NCBI GenBank assembly: GCA_963744145.1
Contig: CAVUSO010000001.1
Span: forward strand, 1,806,831 to 1,870,830
Source: an uncultured cyanobacterium
GTDB taxonomy: Bacteria > Cyanobacteriota > Cyanobacteriia > Cyanobacteriales > CAWUOF01
Length of the DNA: 64,000 bases
Reading direction: 5' to 3'
In this document: positions 1,028 through 60,063 of the stretch, piece after piece
How the letters are laid out: the number at the start of each line of letters is the position of its first letter
Numbering within the stretch: position 1 is the stretch's first letter
Program-made: the position numbers and the translations under genes
Notes under the pieces: model-generated
Told to the model about the DNA's origin: nothing
What the model saw: the letters and a program-made list of their open reading frames with translations, nothing else
The model's database searches: none

Positions 1028-2908
1028 CTAAGAATTCCACCCAACCGAGCAGACAACCCGAAAGCCGATGCTGCGGTAGCGGTCGCCCGGGCCATAATAG
1101 TTGCGACAGGCAGAACGACAATTCCGCGGATTATCGTTCCACGAACCACCACGCACCACACGATGTTGAGAATTATTTCTATTAGTATTCCAAGCACTTC
1201 CATCTGTGGGCGCACCTTGGTAATTTTCATGCCAAAAATCTGCACACCATTCCCATACATTTCCGTGCAGATCGTATAAGCCAAAACCATTGGGCGGAAA
1301 ATTTCCTACCTCTGTTGTTTGTCCGAGATACTCTCCTTTTACTTCATTAGCGTAAGTATAACTAGCGTTATAATTAGCTAACTTACTGGTAATCGTTTCT
1401 CCAAAGTGAAACGGTGTTGTTGTTCCTGCTCGACAAGCATATTCCCATTCCGCTTCCGTCGGTAACCGATAGTTTTTACCTGTCTGTTTAGATAGTCTCG
1501 CACAAAATTCTCCAGATTCATCCCAATTTACTTGTTCTACAGGTAGATTTTCACCTTTAAAATAAGAGGGGTATGGATTTAAATCTATATTTATTTTAGG
1601 TAATTTGGCAACTGCACGCCATTGGGCTTGTGTTACTGCACATTTTCCTAAATAAAATGATTCTACTGTTACATCATGTTGGGCTTCTTCATTATCATAT
1701 CTATCCTTTTCATCCCTTGGTGAACCCATCTTAAACTTATCGCTCGGAATTTTTACCATCTCTAAAGTCGTACCGCTTCCCAGATTTTCTCTAAAAAATT
1801 CCGCTTGTTCCTGACGACTATTAATTTTCTGACCCCGTGCATCTACGGTTATTACTTCAAAAGGAAAGGTAGATATTGGTTTAGGAGGAATTGGACCTTT
1901 CGGACGCTCATTTTCGCCGATTATTGACTTAATTATCAAAGAACCAACTATTCCGACTCCGATCCACTTAACAAAATTTCTTCGCGTTGGTGAAGGTGCA
2001 ATAACTACCTGCGTTTGCGGAGAACCTGTTGGTGGTTGGGGTGGTGGTGGTGGTGCGGATGGTGCTGCGGATGGTGGTGGTGCGGATGGTTGTCCAGTTA
2101 ATGCTTGTAATGTTTCCTCTGCTGTTTGATAGCGATCGCAAAGATTATAACGAGTCATTTTCGTTAAGATCATTTTTAAGAAATCACTTACAGGGACTAA
2201 ATGTTGCCAGAGAATTTCCCTCGTGTTTGGATCTTTAGATAAATTACCAGGATATATTCCAGTTAAAGCTTGGATTGCTACCATTCCTAACGCATAAAGA
2301 TCGCTATTAGTATGAGGTTGACCTCCTGCTTGTTCTATGGGCATATAACCAGGAGTACCGATCGCAATAGTCAAATTAGTCCCTCCTTGGGTGGTGGAAC
2401 TAGCTTGCTGCCATTTTTGCTTAATTGCGCCAAAATCAATTAACACTAACTGCTCATCGGAATGGCGACGCATGAGATTATCAGGTTTGATGTCACGATG
2501 GATCACCTTGTGCTGATGCACAAAAACTAAAATTTTCAATACCTCAATTAACATTTCTCTGATCTTGGCTTCTGTCCATCGTTGACCTGATGACAGTTCG
2601 CGACTGAGAGGATGTCCGTTAATCAATTCTTGTACTAAGTAAAATTCTTGATTTTCTTCAAGAAAAGCTAAAAGTCTAGGAATATTGGGGTGTTCGCCAA
2701 GTTCGTGTAATATTTTCGCTTCTTGGTTGAATAAACGTCTAGCTATTTTTAAATTTTGAGGATCTGTACTAATCGGGTTGAGATGCTTGAGCACACATTG
2801 AGGATGACCGGGAAGTTGGGTGTCTTCCGCAATGTAGGTTTCCCCAAAACCACCTCTAGCCAAAAATTTGATAATTTTGTAACGATTTGCTATTATTTGT
2901 CCAATCAT
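1028..2908 (-). CDS. Ser/Thr protein kinase fused to a C-terminal FGE-sulfatase (formylglycine-generating-enzyme-like, DUF323) domain; Pro-rich linker
   Basis: Kinase motifs HRDIKPDNLMRR, DFGAIKQ, GTPGYMPIEQ. C-terminal motifs RLPTEAEWEYACRAG, GLYDLHGNVWEWCAD, RVVRGGSWNDNPRNCRSACR are typical of FGE/SUMF1-like domains. Linker PPPSAAPSAPPPPPQPPTG. Confidence 0.85.
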   Translation of the reverse strand: MIGQIIANRYKIIKFLARGGFGETYIAEDTQLPGHPQCVLKHLNPISTDPQNLKIARRLFNQEAKILHELGEHPNIPRLLAFLEENQEFYLVQELINGHPLSRELSSGQRWTEAKIREMLIEVLKILVFVHQHKVIHRDIKPDNLMRRHSDEQLVLIDFGAIKQKWQQASSTTQGGTNLTIAIGTPGYMPIEQAGGQPHTNSDLYALGMVAIQALTGIYPGNLSKDPNTREILWQHLVPVSDFLKMILTKMTRYNLCDRYQTAEETLQALTGQPSAPPPSAAPSAPPPPPQPPTGSPQTQVVIAPSPTRRNFVKWIGVGIVGSLIIKSIIGENERPKGPIPPKPISTFPFEVITVDARGQKINSRQEQAEFFRENLGSGTTLEMVKIPSDKFKMGSPRDEKDRYDNEEAQHDVTVESFYLGKCAVTQAQWRAVAKLPKINIDLNPYPSYFKGENLPVEQVNWDESGEFCARLSKQTGKNYRLPTEAEWEYACRAGTTTPFHFGETITSKLANYNASYTYANEVKGEYLGQTTEVGNFPPNGFGLYDLHGNVWEWCADFWHENYQGAPTDGSAWNTNRNNSQHRVVRGGSWNDNPRNCRSACRNYYGPGDRYRSIGFRVVCSVGWNS

Positions 2909-5201
2909 ATTTTAATTTAGTAGGGGCGTTCGCGTAGCGTGCCGGAGGCATAGCATTCGGGCGAAAATTTATCACTGACAACCGATAATATTATATCCGA
3001 ATGCTTCGCCCAGTCCTGCCCGAGATCCCCAAAAACCTTCTTAACTGAACCAGATTGAATCATCTAGTCGATCAATGTGTTGCATAAATGGCCGAGGGCA
3101 AAGCATTCCGGTTTTGGTTCTCTCCGTTGCAGCGATCGCTTTCCGCCGGAATGCTTTGCCCCTACAAATCCGCATATAATTATGTTTATAATCGATCGAT
3201 TTGATTCATAAATGGCTAATCAGATTTTAATTTGGTTCACCGTAGGGGCGAAGCATTCGGGCGAAAATTTATCACTGATAACCGATAATATTATATCCGA
3301 ATGCTTCGCCCAGTCCTGCCCGAGATCCCCAAAAACCTTCTTAACTGAACCAGATTGAATCATCTAGTCCTACGAATCCGGATCTAATTATGTTTATAGT
3401 TGATCGATTTGCTGCATAAATGGCCGAGGGCAAAGCATTCCGGTCTTGGTTCTCTCCGTTGTATCGATCGCTTTCCGCCGGAATGCTTTGCCCCTACAAA
3501 TCCGCATATAATTATGTTTATAATCGATCGATTTGATTCATAAATGGCTAATCAGATTTTAATTTGGTTCACCGTAGGGGCGAAGCATTCGGGCGAAAAT
3601 TTATCACTGACAACCGATCATATTATATCCGAATGCTTCGCCCAGCTCTGCCCGAGATCCCCAAAAACCTTCTTAACTGAACCAGATTGAATCATCTAGT
3701 CGATCGATGTGCTGCATAAATGCCCGAGGGCAAAGCATTCCGGTTTTGGTTCTCTCCGTTGCAGCGATCGCTTTCCGCCGGAATGCTTTGCCCCTACAAA
3801 TCCGCATATAATTATGTTTATAATCGATCGATTTGATTCATAAATGGCTAATCAGATTTTAATTTGGTTCACCGTAGGGGCGAAGCATTCGGGCGAAAAT
3901 TTATCACTGACAACCGATAATATTATATCCGAATGCTTCGCCCAGTCCTGCCCGAGATCCCCAAAAACCTTCTTAACTGAACCAGATTGAATCATCTAGT
4001 CCTACGAATCCGGATCTAATTATGTTTATAGTCGATCGATTTGCTGCATAAATGGCCGAGGGCAAAGCATTCCGGTCTTGGTTCTCTCCGTTGTATCGAT
4101 CGCTTTCCGCCGGAATGCTTTGCCCCTACAAATCCGCATATAATTATGTTTATAATCGATCGATTTGATTCATAAATGGCTAATCAGATTTTAATTTGGT
4201 TCACCGTAGGGGCGAAGCATTCGGGCGAAAATTTATCACTGATAACCGATCATATTATATCCGAATGCTTCGCCCAGCTCTGCCCGAGATCCCCAAAAAC
4301 CTTCTTAACTGAACCAGATTGAATCATCTAGTCGATCGATTTGCTGCATAAATGGCCGAGGGCAAAGCATTCCGGTCTTGGTTCTCTCCGTTGTATCGAT
4401 CGCTTTCCGCCGGAATGCTTTGCCCCTACGAATCCGGATCTAATTATATGTTTATAGTCGATCGATTTGATTCATAAATGGCTAATCAGATTTTAATGTG
4501 GTTCACCGTAGGGGCGAAGCATTCGGGCGAAAATTTATCACTGATAACCGATAATATTATATCCGAATGCTTCGCCCAGTCCTGCCCGAGATCCCCAAAA
4601 ACCTTCTTAACTGAACCAGATTGAATCATCTAGTCCTACGAATCCGGATCTAATTATGTTTATGGTCGATCAATTTGCTGCATAAATGGCCGAGGGCAAA
4701 GCATTCCGGTCTTGGTTCTCTCCGTTGTATCGATCGCTTTCCGCCGGAATGCTTTGCCCCTACGAATCCGGATCTAATTATGTTTATAGTCGATCGATTT
4801 GTTGCATAAATGGCTAATCAGATTTTAATGTGGTTCACAGTAGGGGCGAAGCATTCGGGCGAAAATTTATCACTGACAACCGATCATATTATATCCGAAT
4901 GCTTCGCCCAGCTCTGCCCGAGATCCCCAAAAACCTTCTTAACTGAACCAGATTGAATCATCTAGTCGATCGATTTGCTGTATAAATGGCCGAGGGCAAA
5001 GCATTCCGGTCTTGGTTCTCTTCGTTGTATCGATCGCTGATCTGCCGGAATGCTTTGCCCCTACGAATCCGGATCTAATTATGTTTATACTCGATCGATT
5101 TGCTGCATAAATGGCCGAGGGCAAAGCATTCCGGTCTTGGTTCTCTTCGTTGTATCGATCGCTGATCTGCCGGAATGCTTTGCCCCTACGAATCCGGATA
5201 A
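2909..5201. repeat. Non-coding higher-order tandem array of paired hairpin modules, fills the whole 2.3-kb intergenic region. About 7 copies of an ~630-bp unit made of ~340- and ~290-bp sub-repeats; each module has a 15-16-bp perfect inverted repeat
   Basis: Unit A occurs at ~2921, 3241, 3581, 3871, 4201, 4501, 4841 (gtaggggcgaagcattcgggcgaaaatttatcactga(c/t)aaccgat(a/c)atattatatccgaatgcttcgcccag). Unit B occurs at ~3091, 3431, 3721, 4051, 4351, 4681, 4991, 5111 (gccgagggcaaagcattccgg...cgatcgctttccgccggaatgctttgcccctac). There is no ORF other than one spurious 61-aa frame. Confidence 0.9.
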
Positions 5202-5924
5202 TTAATTAATTAATTTATTGGTAATTATCCGAGTTATTCCTAGTTGTGTTAGTCTTTCTAAATCTTGGATATTATCTACAGTCCAAACAACTATATCTAC
5301 ACCCTGTTTTCGGGTCAGTTCAATTAGGTTGGGATCTTCTAAAATGACTTGATAGTCACTGACCATAATCGTGTTTTCCCTTGTTGCTGCTTTGGCTAAA
5401 CGACTCAAATATTCGGTCTTAGTATCAACTGCATATCCAATTCTGATGTTACTATTGGCTGCACTGATGCGATCGATAAATAATTCGTCAAAGGAACAAA
5501 CTATACTTTTATTTTGCCAACCTGTATCAATTAATATTTGAATAAAGTTATCCACATCAGGATCAGACCAATGCTCAGGATATTTGACCTCTGCATAGAT
5601 AAACTGTTTAAGTTTCTGGTTAAGATAGGAGAGGGTTTCTGTTAAGGTGGGTATGGTTTCTTGGGCAAATTTTTGATCAAACCAAAGTCCCGCATCGAGT
5701 TGTTTTAATTGGGCTAAATTTAGTTCTTTTACTTTACCTGTTATCCCAGTAGTTCTCTGCAATGTCGTATCATGGATGATCACTGGTATTCCATCAGCGG
5801 AAAGTTGCACATCAAATTCGATCGAATCGGCTTGATGCTCAATTGCTGCGGTAAAAGCTGCTATAGTATTTTCTGGTGCTATGCTGGAAAATCCGCGATG
5901 AGCAATTATTTCTAATTTATTCAT
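5202..5924 (-). CDS. ugpQ: Glycerophosphodiester phosphodiesterase (GDPD family)
   Basis: IIAHRGFSSIAPENTIAAF...EFDVQLSADGIPVIIHDTTLQRTTG matches the GDPD catalytic signature. 240 aa. Confidence 0.8.
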   Translation of the reverse strand: MNKLEIIAHRGFSSIAPENTIAAFTAAIEHQADSIEFDVQLSADGIPVIIHDTTLQRTTGITGKVKELNLAQLKQLDAGLWFDQKFAQETIPTLTETLSYLNQKLKQFIYAEVKYPEHWSDPDVDNFIQILIDTGWQNKSIVCSFDELFIDRISAANSNIRIGYAVDTKTEYLSRLAKAATRENTIMVSDYQVILEDPNLIELTRKQGVDIVVWTVDNIQDLERLTQLGITRIITNKLIN

Positions 5925-5956: not shown

Positions 5957-7384
5957 ATGAGTAATACTACCTCTGGAGATGACATCCGTTCTGCTTTCCA
6001 ACGAATTTGGGGATATCAGGATTTTCGTCCACCCCAGCAGGAAATTATTCAATGTTTGCTATCCCAGCAGGATGCTTTAATTATTATGCCAACTGGTGGT
6101 GGTAAGTCAATCTGTTTTCAGTTACCTGCTTTGTTACAAACTGGGTTAACTTTGGTGGTTTCTCCCTTAGTTGCTTTGATGGAAAATCAGGTGCTAGAAT
6201 TGCGTCAGCTCCAGTTACCTGTGGGAATGTTGCATAGTGAATTATCCAGTATTCAGAAAAGACAAACTTACCAAGCTTTGCAACAAAATAGGTTAAGATT
6301 ACTTTATTTATCACCAGAAACTTTGTTGAGTAAATCGGTATGGGAACGGTTGTGTGATCCGGAAGTAAAGATTAATGGTTTAATTTTAGATGAAGCACAT
6401 TGTTTAGTTCAATGGGGAGATGTATTTCGTCCTGCTTATCGTCGTTTAGGGGAAGTCCGATCGCATTTACTCAAATCAAAGTCAGGAGCAAATAAAATCC
6501 CGATCGCTGCTTTTACCGCAACTGCTGATCCGCGATCGCAACAGTTAATCCAAACAGTATTAAAATTACAAACCCCAGCAGTTTTTCAGCTTAGTCCTTA
6601 TCGAGCTAATTTACATTTAAAAGTTGAATATGTCTGTACTCCGCGATCGCGAAGACAAAAGTTGTTAAAATTTATTCAAAGTCACCCGAACCAATGTGGA
6701 TTAATTTATGTCCGTACTCGTCAAGATAGTGAGTTTTTAGCAGAGTGGTTAGCAGAGAAAGGATATCATACAGCAGCTTATCATGCTGGATTAGGTGCTA
6801 ATTTACGTCGATCGATAGAAAAAGCTTGGTTGAGTGGAGAATTAAAATTTGTGATTTCCACCAGTGCGTTTGGAATGGGGGTAAATAAGTCTGATGTGCG
6901 TTGGGTTGCTCATTTTCATCCACCTTTAATTCTATCGGAATATATTCAAGAAATTGGTCGTGGGGGAAGAGATGGAGAAAAAGCAGAAGCTTTAACTTTA
7001 ATTTGTGAACCAACCGGATGGTTATATCCTGAAGATCAACAAAGACAAAAGTTTTTTGAGGAAAGATTAGATGAACAATATCGTTCAGCATTACAACTAG
7101 CAAAACAATTACCACATCAAGGTCAAATCAATGAAATAATCAAAGAATTTCCTGATGCTGCGATCGCGTTATCCTTACTACATAGTACCAATCAACTGAT
7201 CTGGAAAAGTCCGTTTGAGTATGAAATCAAATCTTTAAAAAATGTTCAATCTTCAACTCAACTGGAAGCAATTAAAATGATGAATCAGTATCTATATACT
7301 AGAGAATGTCGATGGAGATTTTTATTAAGAGTATTTGGTTTTGCCAAACCGATGTTACGGTGTGGTTGTTGTGATAATTGTTAG
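5957..7384 (+). CDS. recQ: RecQ-family ATP-dependent DNA helicase
   Basis: GYQDFRPPQQEIIQCLLSQQDALIIMPTGGGKSICFQLPAL (motif I), DEAHCLVQWGDVFRPAYRRLG (DEAH box), helicase C motifs. Confidence 0.85.
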   Translation: MSNTTSGDDIRSAFQRIWGYQDFRPPQQEIIQCLLSQQDALIIMPTGGGKSICFQLPALLQTGLTLVVSPLVALMENQVLELRQLQLPVGMLHSELSSIQKRQTYQALQQNRLRLLYLSPETLLSKSVWERLCDPEVKINGLILDEAHCLVQWGDVFRPAYRRLGEVRSHLLKSKSGANKIPIAAFTATADPRSQQLIQTVLKLQTPAVFQLSPYRANLHLKVEYVCTPRSRRQKLLKFIQSHPNQCGLIYVRTRQDSEFLAEWLAEKGYHTAAYHAGLGANLRRSIEKAWLSGELKFVISTSAFGMGVNKSDVRWVAHFHPPLILSEYIQEIGRGGRDGEKAEALTLICEPTGWLYPEDQQRQKFFEERLDEQYRSALQLAKQLPHQGQINEIIKEFPDAAIALSLLHSTNQLIWKSPFEYEIKSLKNVQSSTQLEAIKMMNQYLYTRECRWRFLLRVFGFAKPMLRCGCCDNC

Positions 7385-7400
7385 TAACGCCAATTTTATT

Positions 7401-7516
7401 CTTGCTCCCCTTTCCTCTTAGGAGAGGGGTTGGGGGAGAGGTCAATCTGCACTAGTAATAATAGACAACACTTGCTCCCCTTTCCTCTTAGGAGAGGGGT
7501 TGAGGGAGAGGTCAAT
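7401..7516. repeat. Two tandem copies of a ~46-bp palindromic dispersed element (cttgctcccctttcctcttaggagaggggttgggggagaggtcaat) between the convergent recQ and trpA genes; probable bidirectional terminator
   Basis: Copies at 7401-7446 and 7471-7516. The same element occurs at 59979-60024 and degenerate at 56553-56598. It contains the inverted repeat ctcccctttcctc / gagaggggttggggga. Confidence 0.7.
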
Positions 7517-8311
7517 TTAAACTATAGCAGCTTTAAGACTTCGACAAAAGTCGCCAATTTCTTTTAGTCCTTGTGCGGGAGAATGATCAGCTAAACGTTT
7601 AACTAAAGCACTACCAACGATCGCCGCATCAGCACCCCATTGTTTAACTTGGAGAGCTTGCGCTGGTGCAGAAATCCCAAAACCAACACCGATCGGTTTA
7701 TCAGTTACTTCTCGTAATTGTTTAATTAATCCCGGTACTCTTGCTTCCATTTGGGTTCTCATCCCCGTTACTCCAGTCACGCTGACTAAATAAATAAATC
7801 CTTGAGATTTAGCCGCGATCGCTTTAATTCGTTCTGGAGAACTGGTGGGAGCAACTAATAAAATTACTTCGATCCCCTGTGCTGCTGCTGGTTCTAATAA
7901 TGTTTCTGCTTCTTCTAAGGGTAAATCTGGCACCACTAAACCTTTGACACCAGAATTCTCGATTTGCTTTAAAAAATTAGTGATGCCACGATTGAGGATC
8001 GGATTATAGTAGCTAAAGAGAATAATTGGCGATCGCACAATTTTAGTGGTATGACTAACTATTTCTAGGACTTGTTCTAATTTTGTGCCCCGTTGGAGGG
8101 AACGGGTCGCAGCAGCTTGAATTACTGGACCATCAGCGAGGGGGTCAGAATAAGGGACACCTAGCTCAATTAAGTCTGCACCATGATCATCTAAAATTTT
8201 TATCGCCTGAGCTGTGGTCTCTAAATCCGGATCACCAGCAGTGATAAAGGGAATTAGGGCACATTCATGAGCGTCGCGTAAAGATTTAAAGCAATGGGAA
8301 ACCGAAACCAT
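7517..8311 (-). CDS. trpA: Tryptophan synthase alpha subunit
   Basis: [55 protein letters not shown] is the canonical TrpA N-terminal signature. 264 aa. Confidence 0.9.
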
Positions 8312-9140: not shown

Positions 9141-9482
9141 GGGGGCGTGGCGGAATGGTAGACGCTACGGACTTAAAAAAATGAGCACTGGTAAAGAAAT
9201 TTATCAAGTGAATGCTCTCAAATTCAGGGAAACCTAAAGCTGAAAACAGATAAGGCAATCCTGAGCCAAGCCGAATCGATTTGTGATTCAATAAAAGGTA
9301 AAATGAATCATAGATCCACAATTCGGAAGGTGCAGAGACTCGACGGGAGCTACCCTAACGTAAAGTCGAGGGTAAAGGGAGAGTCCAATTCTCAACACCA
9401 TGAGGTAGTAGCGAAAGCTACAGGAGAATGAAAATCCGTTGACTGTAAAAAGGTCGTGAGGGTTCAAGTCCCTCTGCCCCCA
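9141..9482 (+). tRNA. trnL-UAA: tRNA-Leu(UAA) interrupted by a 256-nt group I intron (5' exon 9141-9174, intron 9175-9430, 3' exon 9431-9482)
   Basis: 5' exon gggggcgtggcggaatggtagacgctacggactt ends at U34 of the cuUAAaa anticodon loop. The 3' exon aaaatccgttgactgtaaaaaggtcgtgagggttcaagtccctctgcccccA restores the anticodon stem, long variable arm, T-arm and acceptor stem. The intron carries conserved group I core segments (ggaaggtgcagagactcgacgggagctaccctaacg; gagagtccaattctcaa; gtagcgaaagct; ...gagaatg|aaaatccgt). Confidence 0.85.
9175..9430 (+). ncRNA. Group I self-splicing intron within the tRNA-Leu(UAA) anticodon loop
   Basis: Inserted between U34 and A35. Its sequence is highly similar to the well-known cyanobacterial/plastid trnL intron core (P3, P7 elements). 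Confidence 0.8.
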
Positions 9483-24595: not shown

Positions 24596-25156
24596 TTAAT
24601 ATTCACCGACAAATTGAGGATGTACCCACAAAAATTCCCGTCGTTTGTTTTGGACTCGGATCAGTCCCCCAAAATCAGGATCTTTTTCTTTAAGTAAAAC
24701 ATGAATTTTTCTGAGGGTGGAACCTTCAGCACGAATCAGTTTACCTTGTGCTAATTCAGGAGGATCTGGTTTGGGTTGGGAATCTAGAGCCATATCGCTA
24801 CTTTTTAAAGCAAAGTCAAGACTCTTTTCACCTAAATCTAGTTCTTTTTCAAAGCTTTTGTAAGTTGCATCATCTAGTGCTAATTGGGTAACTGATGTTG
24901 CTAGGGGTAAAACCAAAGTTAGTGTTTTAGTCAAAGCTTTTAAGTAGGGAATTGCTCCCGTCACCCATTCACGATTTATTTCAAATTCATAAACACCCGT
25001 TTTAGTGTCTGGGTAATTTAGAAAAGGAAGTGGTTGACGAGAGTGTTCACACCAGAGGGTAAGTTTACACTTGATACTCATCCATTTGGGGCGATCGAAA
25101 AACCCTGGATCAATTAGTTTAATACTAAATAATCTTGGTCCAATCTTTAGCTTCAT
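24596..25156 (-). CDS. Hypothetical protein (186 aa), overlaps the ROCO gene stop by 32 bp (possible translational coupling)
   Basis: ORF only; no recognised motifs. Confidence 0.35.
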   Translation of the reverse strand: MKLKIGPRLFSIKLIDPGFFDRPKWMSIKCKLTLWCEHSRQPLPFLNYPDTKTGVYEFEINREWVTGAIPYLKALTKTLTLVLPLATSVTQLALDDATYKSFEKELDLGEKSLDFALKSSDMALDSQPKPDPPELAQGKLIRAEGSTLRKIHVLLKEKDPDFGGLIRVQNKRREFLWVHPQFVGEY

Positions 25157-28100
25157 CGATAAATGTTTGGATTACACCTTCATAATGTGCGTCGATCTGG
25201 CTTAGAATAGCACTACTCTCTTTAGATAACGTTGTTTTAATTTCATCAACAATATTTCGGACTTTTTCAGCATTAATATCTGGAGATAGTGGTTTAGATG
25301 TTGATGCGTTAGAAAGCATTTTATCAATGTCTTGCCATTCATCACAGCCTGTAATTGGACAGGGATAATCATGACGATTTTTCTTTTTACTTTCAATCAG
25401 CTTTTCTACTTCAAATAATCCTTGTCCTGGTGCTTTTCTTCCGCAAGGTTCAACGCAAGACACCATCACATTACACCGTAATCCTTCCCAGAAATGTTCG
25501 ATTAACCATTTCACCTCTTCTGTTAAATAGGAGAGAAATCTCTCTGGATAAGCAGCCCGTACTGTAATTTTGATATCTGTACCAATATATTCTAACAAAG
25601 CACGACCATTGTAATCATTATCAAGCATTAAGCCTCGTTGCCAGTGAATGCTGTCTTGGTATTTCTCACGTCCCAGAGAATATTTGTGCAAGCGAACAAT
25701 AAGTTGATAAAACAATCCTTCTGCATTAGCAAATTGTCCGCGATCGTCCACAATGCGGCAAATTTGTACTTGTTGTCTATCTCCTGGTGCTGGTAGTTCA
25801 CCCCAATCAGGAAATAGCTCTGGACGTTGGTCTGGTACTAATTGAGCAATCAAACTGGTGTTACTGGGTTCATTTGGGTCAAATACAACTTTGTAGGATA
25901 AATCGAAGCGTTCCATTAGTCGTAAAAACACTGGATGGAGTTCTTTTGGATAGCCCTTCTCATTTGCAAAGGGAGGATAGCTCCATAAATTGCTGAGGTG
26001 ATCAAAGTTCACCAATCCGTTCTGTTCGCGGGTGGTTTTATCATCTAAAACAAAACTGATTGCTTTGGCTAACCAGTCAGGTTTGAGAATCACAATATCC
26101 TGCAAAATGGGATCATAATGATAATGGATTAAATACCCTAGCGTGTGAGAAACCCGCACAAATAGTTCAGCAGCAAATCCCTTTAGACCTTGTTCCTCAC
26201 AAATTGCAATTACATCTTTGTATGGTAAATGGGTTTTGTTCGATTGTTCCAAAAGTTTCTGAATTTGTTGCCATTTCTGGGGAACTGTTCGACCTACACC
26301 AGGTAAGGTAATAGCTATTTTAGCAATTGTCTCTTTCAATTCTGCAATTCCAGAGCAAGACTGGTTTTCTAGATGAGGTTTGCTATCAATATGGAAGAAA
26401 TCAATAATAGTTTCACGACCAAATAGGTCAAATAATTCTTGGCGATCGATATCGGGCTGGCGCTGTCCAGGTCCACCGTGGGTTGCTACTACTAGAATCT
26501 TCGCATCTGGTTCTCGGTGTTTAATCAGAGTAATCCACTCTTTGACAAAGCCCTGTTGTGGTCCTTCCCGTGGTTTCCAGACTACTAAATATACCGCAGG
26601 GGCACTAAAAAACAACTGATGAGTAGGACGATAAACTCTTTGTCCGCCAAAATCCCAACCATTTAGGGTGATTTCTGTGTTGCAATCAGGAGTTTTAACA
26701 ATGACAGGTTTAATTTCAATTCCATGAGTTGTCGGACGACCATCTATCCATTGATCGCCGCGTAATGCTCCCAATAAACAACTTTTACCTACCTCTCCCT
26801 CTCCTACCAAAATTAACTTGGCTTCATTTAAAGTTACTTCTCCCTCTGCTTTTGCCCGTAGGTATTGCATGACTGCTTCTATACCTTGTTCATTAGCAGC
26901 AGCAAAATCAGGATTAAGCGGATTCTTGTCAAGCTTAAGTTCAGTTAGCTTAATAAGCTTTATTAAACTATGGGGCACTTCCGTCAATTGGTTATTGGAG
27001 AGGTAAAGCCTTTGCAACTGTGTGAGGGCTGCGAGCGCCGCTGGCACTTCCGTCAATTGGTTATTGGAGAGGTCAAGCCATTGCAACTGTGTGAGAGCTG
27101 CGAGCGCCGCTGGCACTTCCGTCAATTGGTTTTTGGAGAGGTCAAGCGCTCGCAACTGTGTGAGAGCTGCGAGCGCCGCTGGCACTTCCGTCAATTGGTT
27201 TTTGGAGAGGTCAAGCCATTGCAACTGTGTGAGAGCTGCGAGCGCCGCTGGCACTTCCGTCAATTGGTTTTTGGAGAGGTCAAGCCATTGCAACTGTGTG
27301 AGAGCTGCGAGCGCCGCTGGCACTTCCGTCAATTGGTTTTTGGAGAGGTCAAGCCATTGCAACTGTGTGAGAGCTGCGAGCGCCGCTGGCACTTCCGTCA
27401 ATTGGTTTTTGTTGAGGGAAAGCAATTGCAACTGTGTGAGGGAAAATATTACCTCTGGCACTTTTGTCAATTGGTTTTTGTCGAGGTAAAGCGCTCGCAA
27501 CTGTGTGAGAGCTGCGAGCGCCGCTGGCACTTCCGTCAATTGGTTATTGTCGAGGTAAAGCGCTCGCAACTGTGTGAGGGAAAATATTACCTCTGGCACT
27601 TCCGTCAATTGGTTATTGTCGAGGGAAAGCGATTGCAACTGTGTGAGGGCTGCGAGCGCCGCTGGCACTTCCGTCAATTGGTTTTTGTTGAGGGAAAGCG
27701 ATTGCAACTGTGTGAGGGAAAATATTACCTCTGGCACTTCCGTCAATTGGTTATTGTCGAGGGAAAGCGATTGCAACTGTGTGAGGGCTGCGAGCGCCGC
27801 TGGCACTTCCGTCAATTGGTTATTGTTGAGGGAAAGCGATTGCAACTGTGTGAGGGCTGCGAGCGCCGCTGGCACTTCCGTCAATTGGTTATTGTCGAGG
27901 TCAAGCCATTGCAACTGTGTGAGGGAAAATATTACCTCTGGCACTTTTGTCAATTGGTTTTTTGAATCTTTCCAAAATTTTCCACCAAGATTAAGTTTTT
28001 GCAAATTGGTAAGTTGACCGATCGCCTCTGGCACTTCCGTCAATCCCATATCGCTAAGATCAAGTTCTGTAGCTCCATTTTCCAGTGCTGCTTCAATGCG

Positions 28101-28157
28101 CCGTTCAGCTTCCCGATATGCTTCATCCCGTGCCATCGTCAACCTCTGCTTGCTCAC
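25125..28157 (-). CDS. ROCO-family protein: about 15 leucine-rich repeats + Roc (Ras-of-complex GTPase) + COR domain
   Basis: 23-aa LRR units NNQLTEVPAALAALTQLQSLSLD repeated. Roc P-loop LILVGEGEVGKSCLLGAL, DFGGQ switch II, followed by a COR-like region. Confidence 0.85.
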   Translation of the reverse strand: MSKQRLTMARDEAYREAERRIEAALENGATELDLSDMGLTEVPEAIGQLTNLQKLNLGGKFWKDSKNQLTKVPEVIFSLTQLQWLDLDNNQLTEVPAALAALTQLQSLSLNNNQLTEVPAALAALTQLQSLSLDNNQLTEVPEVIFSLTQLQSLSLNKNQLTEVPAALAALTQLQSLSLDNNQLTEVPEVIFSLTQLRALYLDNNQLTEVPAALAALTQLRALYLDKNQLTKVPEVIFSLTQLQLLSLNKNQLTEVPAALAALTQLQWLDLSKNQLTEVPAALAALTQLQWLDLSKNQLTEVPAALAALTQLQWLDLSKNQLTEVPAALAALTQLRALDLSKNQLTEVPAALAALTQLQWLDLSNNQLTEVPAALAALTQLQRLYLSNNQLTEVPHSLIKLIKLTELKLDKNPLNPDFAAANEQGIEAVMQYLRAKAEGEVTLNEAKLILVGEGEVGKSCLLGALRGDQWIDGRPTTHGIEIKPVIVKTPDCNTEITLNGWDFGGQRVYRPTHQLFFSAPAVYLVVWKPREGPQQGFVKEWITLIKHREPDAKILVVATHGGPGQRQPDIDRQELFDLFGRETIIDFFHIDSKPHLENQSCSGIAELKETIAKIAITLPGVGRTVPQKWQQIQKLLEQSNKTHLPYKDVIAICEEQGLKGFAAELFVRVSHTLGYLIHYHYDPILQDIVILKPDWLAKAISFVLDDKTTREQNGLVNFDHLSNLWSYPPFANEKGYPKELHPVFLRLMERFDLSYKVVFDPNEPSNTSLIAQLVPDQRPELFPDWGELPAPGDRQQVQICRIVDDRGQFANAEGLFYQLIVRLHKYSLGREKYQDSIHWQRGLMLDNDYNGRALLEYIGTDIKITVRAAYPERFLSYLTEEVKWLIEHFWEGLRCNVMVSCVEPCGRKAPGQGLFEVEKLIESKKKNRHDYPCPITGCDEWQDIDKMLSNASTSKPLSPDINAEKVRNIVDEIKTTLSKESSAILSQIDAHYEGVIQTFIDEAKDWTKII
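26940..27965. repeat. Near-perfect tandem 69-bp repeats (about 15 units) encoding the LRR solenoid of the ROCO protein
   Basis: Direct reading: ggcacttccgtcaattggtt(a/t)ttg(g/t)(a/c)gaggt(c/a)aagcc(a/t)ttgcaactgtgtgag(a/g)gctgcgagcgccgct reiterated. The long + strand ORFs here are shadow frames. Confidence 0.9.
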
Positions 28158-28487: not shown

Positions 28488-29351
28488 TTAGGCATCTGCA
28501 TCAGGATCAATCCCCATTGCCCGTAGGCGTTCTGCAAGTCTTGCTGCTTTAATTTCAGCTTGTTCTGCCCGTTGATCCGCCTGGATAGCCCGTTGATCCG
28601 CTTGGATGGCCCGTTGATCCGCTTGGATGGCTCGCTGACGTTCCTGTTCAGCTTGCAGTTTTTCTAGCTCGGCTTTTTCATTGCCAATCAGTAATAGATT
28701 ACCTTCATGATCCCACCATCGCAACCAGATTTGCGTTTGGTTTTGATAAGTTCCTTGCCATAGCCCTAGTTCTACTCCTAATGGCTCAATCAAATAATGG
28801 TTACGTTCATTCGGCTCTAATTTTCGATAGGAAAAATCTACTAAGTGATACACTTCTAACTTGGCAGTTTTGATTTCATAGATGCCATAATAGGGAATCC
28901 GAATGATTTGTTCATACACCCAAAATTTCCCTGGTTTAATTTTCTTACCGTCGGGAGAAATGGCAAGTGGAGTTCGATCTCGTTCTTCTTCACCATTACC
29001 ACTAGCAAACTCTAAGGCAATCAATGGGGCTCTTAATTCCCGCCAAAACACATAGGAACGGCGGATCTCTCCATCAAGATTAGGTGGGACATTTGGCACA
29101 TAGAACCAATCGGGAGCTTCAGCACCTTTTTCGGGAGGATCAGTTTCCAGCCAGTAGATGCCACTATCTTGTCCAATACAATAATATCCATCTGGATGCA
29201 ATTGTTGTAAAATTTGCCCAATCGAGTCCGTCAGGATCAGACTCTGGGGATGTTCCTGAAAATTTTTCACAAATGTACCGTCTTCGTCTGGCAGTTGGGT
29301 ATGATCTGGGAAGGAGGAATGGCGATTTACTTGGGTTAATGTTTCTGTCAT
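28488..29351 (-). CDS. Uma2-family (DUF820) putative endonuclease with C-terminal coiled coil and AIQADQR x3 repeat; copy 1
   Basis: Uma2 signature blocks APDWFYVPNVPP..., PLIALEFASGNGEEERD..., GKFWVYEQIIRIPYYGIYEI... (PD-(D/E)xK-like), C-terminal ...LRAMGIDPD. Confidence 0.7.
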   Translation of the reverse strand: MTETLTQVNRHSSFPDHTQLPDEDGTFVKNFQEHPQSLILTDSIGQILQQLHPDGYYCIGQDSGIYWLETDPPEKGAEAPDWFYVPNVPPNLDGEIRRSYVFWRELRAPLIALEFASGNGEEERDRTPLAISPDGKKIKPGKFWVYEQIIRIPYYGIYEIKTAKLEVYHLVDFSYRKLEPNERNHYLIEPLGVELGLWQGTYQNQTQIWLRWWDHEGNLLLIGNEKAELEKLQAEQERQRAIQADQRAIQADQRAIQADQRAEQAEIKAARLAERLRAMGIDPDADA

Positions 29352-31006: not shown

Positions 31007-31849
31007 TTAGTCATCCGTATCAGGGTCAATCCCCATTGCCCGTAGACGTTCTGCAAGTCTTGCTGCTTTAATTTCAGCTTGTTCTGCCCGTTGATCCGAT
31101 TGGATTGCCCGTTGATCCGCCTGGATGGCTCGCTGACGTTCCTGTTCAGCTTGCAGTTTTTCTAGCTCGGCTTTTTCATTGCCAATCAGTAATAGATTAC
31201 CTTCATCATCCCACCATCGTAACCAGATTTGCGTTTGGTTTTGATAAGTCCCTTGCCATAGCCCTAGTTCTACTCCTAAGGGCTCAATCAAATAATGGTT
31301 ACGTTCATTCGGCTCTAGTTTTTGATAGGAAAAATCTACTAAGTGATACACTTCTAATTTGGCAGTTTTGATTTCATAGATGCCATAATAGGGAATCCGA
31401 ATAATTTGCTCATACACCCAAAATTTCCCTGGTTTGATCTTTTTACCGTCGGGAGAAATTGCCAGCGGAGTTCGATCTCGTTCTTCTTGACCATTACCAC
31501 TAGCAAACTCTAAGGCAATCAATGGGGCTCTTAATTCCCGCCAAAACACATAGGAACGGCGGATCTCTCCATCAAGATTAGGTGGGACATTTGGCACATA
31601 GAACCAATCGGGAGCTTCAGCACCTTTTTCGGGAGGATCAGTTTCCAGCCAGTAGATGCCACTATCTTGTCCAATACAATAATATCCATCTGGATGCAAT
31701 TGTTGTAAAATTTGCCCAATCGAGTCCGTCAGGATCAGACTCTGGGGATGTTCCTGAAAATTTTTCACAAATGTACCGTCTTCATCTGGCAGTTGGGTAT
31801 GATCTGGAAATGAGGAATGGCGATTTACTTGGGTTAATGTTTCTGTCAT
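31007..31849 (-). CDS. Uma2-family putative endonuclease, copy 2 (about 97% identical to copy 1; AIQ(A/S)DQR x2)
   Basis: Collinear with 28488..29351, differing by one heptad-repeat unit and a few substitutions. Confidence 0.7.
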   Translation of the reverse strand: MTETLTQVNRHSSFPDHTQLPDEDGTFVKNFQEHPQSLILTDSIGQILQQLHPDGYYCIGQDSGIYWLETDPPEKGAEAPDWFYVPNVPPNLDGEIRRSYVFWRELRAPLIALEFASGNGQEERDRTPLAISPDGKKIKPGKFWVYEQIIRIPYYGIYEIKTAKLEVYHLVDFSYQKLEPNERNHYLIEPLGVELGLWQGTYQNQTQIWLRWWDDEGNLLLIGNEKAELEKLQAEQERQRAIQADQRAIQSDQRAEQAEIKAARLAERLRAMGIDPDTDD

Positions 31850-51249: not shown

Positions 51250-51590
51250 TTAAAAATGTTTATTCCCAAAATTAATAAATATAATCGCATACTTGTTCAG
51301 ATGAGCAACCTGGTAGTGATTGGGCATGACTCTCCTTTAAGTTAACTAGCTATTAAGTTTTTTGGCCAGTTGTTGTTTATAATACAAAGCGATAAAATTA
51401 TTTAAGCATACTAAATTGCTTATCGTACCAGGGAATAAAAAAAAATACAAAACTTTACAATTAACATCTGGTTGACTTTGATCACCAAATAGGTTATTAA
51501 AAATATCTTCCTTCAACTCCAATCTGAGTTTGGGATCATCCATATTACCCATAGAGACCTATTGTTCTTACGCCCCTACTAAAAGTTATC

Positions 51591-59514: not shown

Positions 59515-60063
59515 TCCGAATTATGTTTTGCTAATCCCTACTTTTGGAGTGCATACATTCTGATCGGATTATAATACAATATGGTTCAGTTAACGATGTT
59601 TTGGGAGATCTCGGCTTTAGAAGGGTGAAGATGTTTTGGGAGATATCGATTCAGAACTGGATGAAGATGTTTTGGGAGATCTCGGCTTTAGAAGGGTGAA
59701 GCATTCGGATATAATATTCCTAGTTTGATTGTTCAATTGTCGCCCGAATGCTTCACCCCTACAATTAACTGAACCTGATTGGATGATAATATGTCCTTCG
59801 CGATCGCAACGAAGGAATATCAATTTCTAGCGATCGGGTTTTCTGCGCTCATAAGAAAGACCTAACCCCCCAACCCCCTTCCCTAAGAGGGAATGGGGAG
59901 TAAGAGAATTATTGAGCGCGTTTTCTTCGCTGCAAAGAGAATTTTTATGATACAATAGAAAAAATAGATATAAGAATTCTTGCTCCCCTTTCCTCTTAGG
60001 AGAGGGGTTGGGGGAGAGGTCAATCAACCCGATCGCTCCATCACCATTCTTACCCCCCTTTCC

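Follow-up and report, generated by a model that had tools for sequence, protein, structure and literature searches.

A 2.3-kb intergenic repeat block in an uncultured cyanobacterium is very probably a BIME-type tandem cluster of 15 REPs

Here we describe a block of tandem repeats in a 64,000-nucleotide stretch of DNA (the window) from an uncultured cyanobacterium of the order Cyanobacteriales (GenBank assembly GCA_963744145.1, contig CAVUSO010000001.1, positions 1,806,831 to 1,870,830, forward strand). The block, at 2909-5201 of the window, is non-coding, is built entirely of repeats and occupies the whole intergenic gap between a gene for a Ser/Thr kinase fused to an FGE-sulfatase domain and a gene for a glycerophosphodiester phosphodiesterase (GDPD), as an initial annotation made from the sequence had recognised. 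We conclude that it is very probably a cluster of 15 repetitive extragenic palindromes (REPs) of the bacterial interspersed mosaic element (BIME) type, with seven tandem REP dimers, each an A and a B hairpin, and one extra B. It belongs to a known element class, of which it is an unusually large example, and is not a new RNA gene. Its identity as a REP cluster follows from the GTAG and CTAC tetranucleotides (feet) at the hairpin bases together with the opposite orientations of A and B, both of which the initial annotation had missed.

Results

Hairpins, feet and orientation

The repeat block is real and far above chance: the motif GTAGGGGCG, with which the leftmost A copy begins, occurs 8 times against 0.2 expected. 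The A stem is formed by GGGCGAAGCATTCGG and CCGAATGCTTCGCCC, with 6 perfect 5' arms (starting at 3246, 3578, 3878, 4210, 4512 and 4844) and 7 perfect 3' arms, and the B stem by GGGCAAAGCATTCCGG and CCGGAATGCTTTGCCC, with 8 copies of each arm. These perfect inverted repeats of 15 bp (A) and 16 bp (B) had been given exactly by the initial annotation and were also returned by an independent repeat finder; the loops, put there at ~45 and ~40 nt, measured 36 nt in A and 34-35 nt in B. The hairpins are 66-67 nt long, at the upper end of the published REP range (~21-65 nt). Folding of single units, proposed earlier as a check, gave -17 to -21 kcal/mol as DNA with z-scores of -5 to -7, and the 632-nt double unit folded as RNA reached -227 kcal/mol (z = -8).

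We found a GTAG foot on the plus strand in all seven A units and on the minus strand (CTAC on the plus strand) in all eight B units and in one solitary copy elsewhere in the window. The stem base is GGG...CCC, that is three G-C pairs, in every copy. Between the A and B stems there are two differences, a compensatory G-C to A-T change and an inserted C-G pair, and their loops are unrelated. Because GTAG precedes A on the plus strand and CTAC ends B, A and B are elements of one kind that face opposite ways. A profile of 84 foreign REPs, all oriented so that GTAG was at the 5' end, scored the A units at 61-64 bits on the plus strand versus 45-48 on the minus strand, and the B units at 39-43 bits on the minus strand versus 30-31 on the plus strand.

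The array comprises 7 A hairpins and 8 B hairpins. Its G+C content is 44% versus 41% for the window, and 2 of the 62 HIP1 octamers (GCGATCGC) in the 64 kb fall within its 2.3 kb. The array, its REPs and the two flanking genes are listed below; except where a line says otherwise, the REPs were placed by stem match and oriented profile:

2920-5198, no strand: whole array of 15 REP hairpins, seven tandem A+B heterodimers with GTAG outside and one additional B
2920-3011, plus strand: A0 REP; GTAG foot 2920-2923, 5' arm interrupted by a 23-nt insertion, nhmmer 45 bits on the plus strand
3242-3311, plus strand: A1 REP (GTAG, 15-bp stem, 36-nt loop); 64.4 bits on the plus strand, 47.6 on the minus strand
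3574-3643, plus strand: A2 REP
3874-3943, plus strand: A3 REP
4206-4275, plus strand: A4 REP
4508-4577, plus strand: A5 REP
4840-4909, plus strand: A6 REP
3096-3165, minus strand: B1 inverted REP (16-bp stem, 34-nt loop, CTAC on the plus strand); 43 bits on the minus strand, 30 on the plus strand
3428-3497, minus strand: B2 inverted REP
3728-3797, minus strand: B3 inverted REP
4060-4129, minus strand: B4 inverted REP
4360-4429, minus strand: B5 inverted REP
4694-4763, minus strand: B6 inverted REP
4994-5064, minus strand: B7 inverted REP, variant with a 35-nt loop
5119-5189, minus strand: B8 inverted REP; 125-nt period after B7 with no A in between
1028-2908, minus strand: flanking gene, Ser/Thr kinase fused to an FGE-sulfatase domain, 626 amino acids; start codon 12 nt from the first GTAG foot
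5202-5924, minus strand: flanking gene, GDPD (ugpQ-like), 240 amino acids; stop codon 13 nt from the last CTAC foot

Units and higher-order period

In the tandem dimers A (plus) and B (minus) alternate strictly, with linkers of 84 or 116 nt from A to B and of 84 nt from B to A. Start-to-start spacing alternates between 150 and 182 nt from A to B and is 150 nt (152 once) from B to A, and the last two B units lie 125 nt apart. From these spacings the basic A+B unit measures 300 or 332 bp and is present in ~7 copies, which replaces the 340/290-bp spacing first proposed. Since two unit types alternate, a higher-order period of 632/634 bp results. The earlier description of an ~630-bp unit repeated about 7 times at >95% identity thus holds for the period and for copies 1 and 2, which are 97.6% identical, but the period is present in only ~3.5 copies and copy 3 is ~92% identical to both others. 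Identity within one unit type is 96-99.4%, with 92-96% among the three full short units, and falls to 84-88% between neighbouring units, chiefly owing to a 32-nt indel. The leftmost copy, A0, keeps the foot GTAGGGGCG at 2920, and its 5' arm is split at 2929-2951 by the insertion TTCGCGTAGCGTGCCGGAGGCAT, of which no second copy was found anywhere in the window.

With repeats this similar, the array might be real and its length or copy number wrong, the assembly having been over-expanded, collapsed or mis-joined. In favour of such an error are the 96-99% identity of the units and a short-read assembly of this organism that goes no further than the first 32 nt of the array. However, the source contig is 7.63 Mb long, consistent with a long-read or finished assembly, and ordered unit-specific variants and a regular alternation of long and short units would be hard to produce by mis-assembly, as would the distinct right end (B-B, 125 nt) and the uniquely disrupted left copy. 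The short-read assembly, being independent, also indicates that the array junction is real, because it breaks inside the first REP after the GDPD stop. We therefore regard an artefact of copy number or length as improbable.

The solitary copy

Besides the 15 clustered copies, the 64-kb window contains one solitary copy and one possible remnant. The solitary element and its surroundings are:

59690-59762, minus strand: solitary A-type REP with stem GGGTGAAGCATTCGG; hairpin 59694-59758, CTAC 59759-59762, between convergent genes
59595-59701, no strand: 35-nt triplication of the tail of the solitary REP (GCCGAGATCTCCCAAAAC...), the tail being homologous to the tails of the A units

A relative of A had been placed at 59690-59765 by the initial annotation. 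The hairpin is indeed there, but its orientation is opposite to that of the A units, and its stem carries a further compensatory change, C-G to T-A. The element sits within a larger imperfect palindrome, with TTAACTGAACC motifs at 59571-59614 and 59765-59787. An isolated GTAGGGGCG at 51571-51579 (minus strand), without a partner arm, is either a REP remnant or a chance occurrence.

The hairpin family in other genomes

A scan of one genome per species with the pattern AAGCATTC N25-55 GAATGCTTYRCCC matched at least 119 genome stretches, mostly from cyanobacteria, that carry the hairpin GGGCGAAGCATTC...GAATGCTTCGCCC of ~65 nt. Among the matches listed, to which the counts in this section refer, the cyanobacterial hosts include Microcoleus, Microcystis, Pseudanabaena, Anabaena, Planktothrix, Hormoscilla, Leptolyngbya and others, and the remaining hosts belong to Chloroflexi, KSB1, Latescibacterota, Calditrichota, Acidimicrobiia and Chthonomonadia; a few matches (Rhizobium, Opitutia) lack the full palindrome and are chance-like. 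Other genomes carry several separate hairpin loci each. The 108 perfect hairpins are 51-67 nt long (median 65), and 102 of them have GTAG at one or both feet (both in 15); the 216 feet include 117 GTAG, 23 GTAC and 14 GTAA. The stem extends beyond the 13 nt forced by the pattern in 97 of 104 distinct hairpins, with varied bases (GG, CGG, CCA, GC, GCGC). In a control in which loop ends were re-paired at random, 48 of 104 had no stem extension at all. When an A unit of the window was compared with the foreign copies, similarity covered ~70 nt, consisting of GTAG and the hairpin only, at 80-86%, with the best matches in Aerosakkonema, Oscillatoria PCC 10802 and Floridaenema.

The foreign hairpins also occur as close pairs. 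We counted 18 (16 distinct, L122-L124 being one locus), of which 15 have GTAG outside (plus, then minus), with gaps of 24-227 nt. The partners mostly differ in the inner stem, for example GCATTCGG with GCATTTGG and GCATTCCCC with GCATTGGCC. Because foreign pairs mostly have GTAG outside and unlike inner stems, the A+B doublet of the window is an ordinary heterodimer of the family, corresponding to the y/z2 pair of E. coli. The largest number of copies in any other retrieved 8-kb stretch was 4, most of these assemblies being short-read ones that would break at arrays. Clustering of all open reading frames (ORFs) near the 119 foreign copies gave no recurrent neighbour gene except common signalling families, and two scans of metagenomes, one for a 22-mer from a linker and one for a 22-mer from the B stem-loop, gave no matches. 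At the locus itself, the nearest GDPD homologue has 58% protein identity, and the best protein matches, none above 58%, come from Oscillatoriales genera. In the two relatives examined the RecQ-GDPD gene pair is kept, the spacers downstream of it are short and REP-free, and the downstream genes are different.

Link to RAYT transposases

By their sequence context, the hairpins are very probably REPs tied to REP-associated tyrosine transposases (RAYTs, or TnpA_REP) of subclass 2.4 (Group 4), which are Y1-HUH enzymes, and the description of that subclass by Quentin et al. fits them throughout. We searched the window and the foreign loci with an E. coli RayT sequence, used as a lead only, and then with the family hidden Markov model. 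Among the foreign loci only L010, from Chloroflexi, was matched. Its ORF 6463-7026 (187 amino acids) contains Pfam Y1_Tnp and has REP_Tyr_transpos as its top NCBIfam family (E 3.8e-19, 69 bits). One GTAG-footed hairpin lies inside this RAYT-like gene, where it encodes SRRGEAF...NASPV, and a second lies 6 nt past the stop codon. The RAYT-like gene of L121 (Egbenema bharatensis) has one internal copy and a near-identical copy 82 nt upstream, and that of L122 has one and a half internal copies and one ~60 nt downstream. The hairpin was therefore present within and beside the gene in all three RAYT-like Y1 transposase genes examined. In L010, a classical IS200 tnpA (7450-7914, minus strand; Pfam Y1_Tnp, E 3.7e-41) directly adjoins the RAYT gene.

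The L010 protein has >5000 homologues, many of them labelled RayT in the source records. An alignment of 20 members showed a near-universal RRGEAF, followed by 8-15 variable residues and NASPL; this stretch has the HuH motif (MPNHxHG) on one side and the WQRNYY / YIxxNP (Tyr) motifs on the other. Other members have GAKHS or GEAL...QCFAP at this place, which is the same DNA in a different reading frame: in L122 (4315-4450), P0205, P0143, P0165 and P0177 the 5' arm is read as RGEAF, GAKHS or GEAL and the 3' arm as NASP or QCFAP. Because REP DNA is read in several frames inside RAYT genes, the constraint is on the DNA and not on the protein. Some RAYT genes hold several tandem REPs and encode proteins of 230-305 amino acids; the longest of these, P0205 (305 amino acids), has about six repeated PNAT...GVAFG blocks, that is, tandem REP amplification inside a RAYT gene. 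For six further members the best family was again REP_Tyr_transpos, below the cut-off, with the model match lying mainly after the insertion.

These results bear on the proposal, raised by the initial annotation, that the block is a multicopy locus of a structured small RNA (sRNA), comparable to the NsiR1 genes that stand in tandem in Nostocales; on this reading every unit would be an sRNA gene transcribed on its own. Tandem sRNA genes exist in cyanobacteria, the hairpins are very stable as RNA too, and perfect TATAAT hexamers are present on the plus strand of every B-to-A linker (GCATATAATTATGTTTATAATCG). However, no Rfam family was found for the array, either with the whole window at the gathering threshold, where the group I intron detected is unrelated, or with the array at E up to 10, where chance sub-threshold matches resembling miRNAs and snoRNAs were the only ones. 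There is no promoter-like site inside the array, the two adjacent matches both lying at the edge of the kinase gene; over the scanned region promoter matches were fewer than in shuffles, and zero terminator-like sites were detected, in agreement with the earlier view that the stems are not terminator-like. Moreover, the part conserved in >100 genomes is the 70-nt GTAG plus palindrome alone; copies of this palindrome are found on both strands, some of them between genes and others within RAYT coding sequences, where more than one frame is used. In this indifference to strand and frame it behaves like a DNA element recognised by a protein and not like a strand-specific RNA gene, and we consider the sRNA reading very unlikely.

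Linkers and growth of the array

Two linker features bear on how the cluster of REP dimers grew:

3370-3401, 4002-4033 and 4636-4667, plus strand: optional 32-nt block (CTACGAATCCGGATCTAATTATGTTTATAGT) giving the long A-to-B linker; a copy of post-B sequence
3194-3241, plus strand: stretch of the B-to-A linker that has diverged from the unique sequence at the left flank (2882-2919), of which it is a copy; recurs in every unit

The optional block begins exactly at the CTAC foot sequence (GTCC/TACG, the slash marking its start) and has TAGTC microhomology on both sides. The ~58 nt downstream of each B (CTAC[A/G]AATCC...CATAAATGGC) reappear ahead of B in the long units, and the right edge of the array is a truncated copy of the post-B linker. 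At the other end, the left flank 2882-2919 covers the beginning of the kinase gene, with its start codon and first codons. Its alignment with the linker (AATCAGATTTTAATTTGG versus AATCATATTTTAATTTAG) has a local score of 29 versus a maximum of 24 in 300 shuffles, and each B-to-A linker holds, in the ~40 nt ahead of the A foot, a degenerate copy of the kinase start, in which ATG has turned into CTG and a stop codon follows later. Other genomes do not share the linkers: in BLAST against all loci, similarity ended at the 70-nt GTAG plus hairpin.

Because the linkers are paralogous to one another and to the left flank, the sequence points to growth by segmental tandem duplication of an existing dimer with its flanks, not by repeated insertion. 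A recombination or slippage hotspot, one of the readings first offered, is thus supported as the route of growth by the paralogous linkers and the TAGTC-bounded block. The starting state would have been a single A+B dimer between the kinase and GDPD genes, which may then have been amplified through unequal crossing-over or replication slippage. A recent duplication of the 632-bp double unit would have left units of one type highly identical.

Cleavage by a RAYT at the CTAC foot, followed by rejoining, possibly started or assisted this amplification. In E. coli, TnpA_REP cuts at CC/TAC, and its strand transfer joins tandem BIMEs in vitro (PMC3333891). The start of the 32-nt block, GTCC/TACG, resembles this cut and rejoining site, and on this ground the array might have arisen in a cyanobacterium through BIME amplification catalysed by a RAYT, a process now frozen or still active, which we consider possible but doubtful. 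As far as the sequence goes, homologous unequal exchange or slippage could equally account for all of the amplification without a RAYT. If the RAYT-catalysed route were true, the array would give the first footprint in vivo of a subclass 2.4 RAYT at work, and the 15-hairpin block might act as a tunable insulator or stabiliser between GDPD and kinase, or as a loading site for nucleoid proteins or gyrase.

The structure of the linkers also bears on a classical origin from miniature inverted-repeat transposable elements (MITEs), moved by a DDE transposase that recognises terminal inverted repeats and inserted repeatedly, or nested, at one site. With its perfect terminal inverted repeats the hairpin resembles a short element of this kind, the family is dispersed over several phyla, and the solitary copy, with its TTAACTGAACC motifs, lies inside a larger imperfect palindrome. 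Direct target-site duplications are absent, however: the flanks pair GTAG with CTAC, with the complement of GTAC or with unrelated sequence, and are inverted rather than direct. No recurrent transposase was found near the copies except the Y1 RAYT, and linkers that are common to the units and copy a unique flank indicate segmental duplication. The nested-MITE suggestion was thus close only in the broad sense that these are small non-autonomous elements, but they are REPs with a GTAG foot and a link to Y1/HUH RAYTs, and a MITE array in the classical sense is highly improbable. A CRISPR array was rejected, as the initial annotation had also argued, because the sequences between the hairpins are themselves repeated, and a coding reading was rejected with a longest internal ORF of 61 amino acids, so that the earlier statement of no coding potential stands.

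Other features of the window

A group I intron (9165-9406; Rfam RF00028, 85.5 bits) interrupts a tRNA-Leu(UAA) gene at 9143-9480; both halves of the exon sequence can be read beside the intron, and ARAGORN finds no tRNA in the window. Taken with the 62 HIP1 octamers and the Oscillatoriales protein matches of at most 58% identity, this split tRNA gene indicates a cyanobacterium of the filamentous type that has no close sequenced relative in the collections. A coding tandem repeat of 69 bp (26974-27925, 13.8 copies) lies within ORF 25125-28157 (minus strand), which encodes a 1010-amino-acid LRR-Roc-COR (ROCO-type) protein, the repeat corresponding to leucine-rich repeats of 23 amino acids. Two paralogous ORFs of the Uma2 family (putative restriction endonuclease) are located 2.5 kb apart at 28488-29351 and 31007-31849, both on the minus strand, with a 21-bp tandem repeat (GCCCGTTGATCCG...) close to the 3' end of each (28567-28638 and 31085-31126).

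Discussion

Position and possible consequences

Both flanking genes are on the minus strand, so the array occupies a co-directional spacer, and the solitary copy lies between convergent genes. In the account of genomic locations given by Di Nocera et al., co-directional spacers and gaps between convergent genes are the preferred sites of REPs, and the positions of both the array and the solitary copy agree with this. Because the array separates two minus-strand genes, any transcript that reaches the kinase from upstream must carry the REP hairpins. A GDPD read-through transcript would bear up to 15 stable stem-loops, and these, by analogy with other REPs, could make 3'-to-5' decay slower for the message upstream and attenuate the kinase gene downstream in its expression. 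The roles proposed for REPs in the sections of the literature that treat them include stabilisation of upstream mRNA, transcription termination or attenuation, and binding of gyrase or IHF (PMC3733652; PMC3333891). Buffering of mRNA together with attenuation would, on this analogy, be the most likely side-effect of the array. On single-stranded DNA, the hairpins would be substrates for a RAYT.

Several points weigh against the identification as a RAYT-linked, BIME-type cluster. The 64-kb window holds a single copy outside the array and no RAYT gene was found in it, so that the cognate RAYT and dispersed copies are assumed to lie elsewhere in the 7.63-Mb genome. The RAYT proteins score 58-72 bits, under the curated NCBIfam cut-off of 80, and the copy number of the array is the one given by the assembly. 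The similarity of the linker to the kinase flank is modest (29, with a shuffle maximum of 24). The linkers, of 84 and 116 nt, are far longer than those of E. coli BIME-2 and are absent from the genomes compared.

The identification as a REP cluster settles the nature of what might pass for a new RNA gene family or a satellite. To our knowledge, no experiments on REP biology in cyanobacteria have been reported to date. As a specimen, the array is a very large BIME-like one (15 REPs, 2.3 kb) with a clean higher-order structure and a duplication history that is legible in the linkers. It would offer a convenient substrate for asking whether RAYTs of subclass 2.4 cut DNA at CTAC feet and join it there, and how runs of REP hairpins affect transcript stability and read-through in cyanobacteria. 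Two cautions also follow: in annotated RAYT proteins, the peptide motifs GEAF...NASP come from the translation of REP DNA, and arrays of this kind break short-read assemblies.

Comparison with known systems

The stem motif itself has appeared in print before. In a full-text literature search for GGGCGAAGCATTC, it was printed only in Klemencic et al. (2021), where 152-bp direct repeats flanking a toxin-antitoxin locus of Microcystis aeruginosa PCC 7806 contain the inverted repeat GGGCGAAGCATTCGGA with the same 16-nt stem. That repeat is present in two copies, not as an array, and was treated as a local repeat, its REP nature unrecognised.

The palindromes described by Di Nocera et al. (2013), among them GTAG-12, -15 and -16 of cyanobacteria, share with the array the GTAG tag and the grouping of elements; in the descriptions given there they form GTAG-outside (HH) dimers 20-100 bp apart, and their hosts include Cyanobacteria and Chloroflexi. 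The stems tabulated for those families are 6-13 bp long with loops of mostly 2-15 nt, whereas the stems of the array are 15-16 bp and its loops 34-36 nt. Because of these shorter stems and loops, the array REPs probably belong to none of the 24 families, as far as the stem and loop descriptions define them.

A closer likeness is to the REPs of subclass 2.4 (Quentin et al. 2018, BMC Genomics 19:475; Bertels et al. 2017). In the main text of Quentin et al. (PMC6006769), subclass 2.4 corresponds to RAYT Group 4 of Bertels, has the motifs NH[IFV]H, WQ and YIxNNP and a length of ~194 amino acids, and is associated with "canonical long REPs" that have three G-C pairs at the stem base and occur in frame inside tnpA_REP. 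Group 4 RAYTs are common in Cyanobacteria, Chlorobia and Caldilineae (Bertels et al. 2017). By these published descriptions, the subclass 2.4 REPs have, like the array, the GTAG foot and three G-C base pairs; both they and the present family are abundant in Cyanobacteria and scattered over other phyla, both have in-frame copies in RAYT genes between the HuH and Tyr motifs, and both include some "double foot" copies (GTAG...CTAC in 15 of 108 here, among the matches listed). Identity with a particular family listed by Quentin et al. is inferred by description, the consensus not being printed in the main text of that paper.

In its two-part unit the array also resembles REPINs (REP doublets forming hairpins; Bertels and Rainey 2011), in which, as in A+B, the unit is two inverted REPs; this doublet is thought to be the replicating entity and to be served by a single-copy, vertically inherited RAYT. 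In contrast to REPINs, the A and B stems differ by one substitution and one indel and have unrelated loops, and the doublet is tandemly amplified at one site, not dispersed.

The nearest parallel in architecture is BIME-2 of E. coli, in which tandem REPs and inverted REPs (iREPs) with conserved linkers vary in copy number between strains (PMC3333891). As in BIME-2 (y REP / z2 iREP, linkers S and s/l/r; Ton-Hoang et al. 2012, NAR 40:3596), two stem variants alternate in the array, there are two or three fixed linker types, the tandem copies are well conserved and intergenic, and amplification has been proposed to proceed by recombination and/or TnpA_REP strand transfer. The array differs in that its hairpins, at 66-67 nt and with large loops, have about twice the length, its linkers are 84-116 nt, its unit is 300-332 bp with a 632-bp period and a total of 2.3 kb, and its presumed RAYT is of subclass 2.4 versus 2.2 in E. 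coli. By analogy, then, the array is the counterpart of the E. coli BIME-2 arrays, with much longer linkers.

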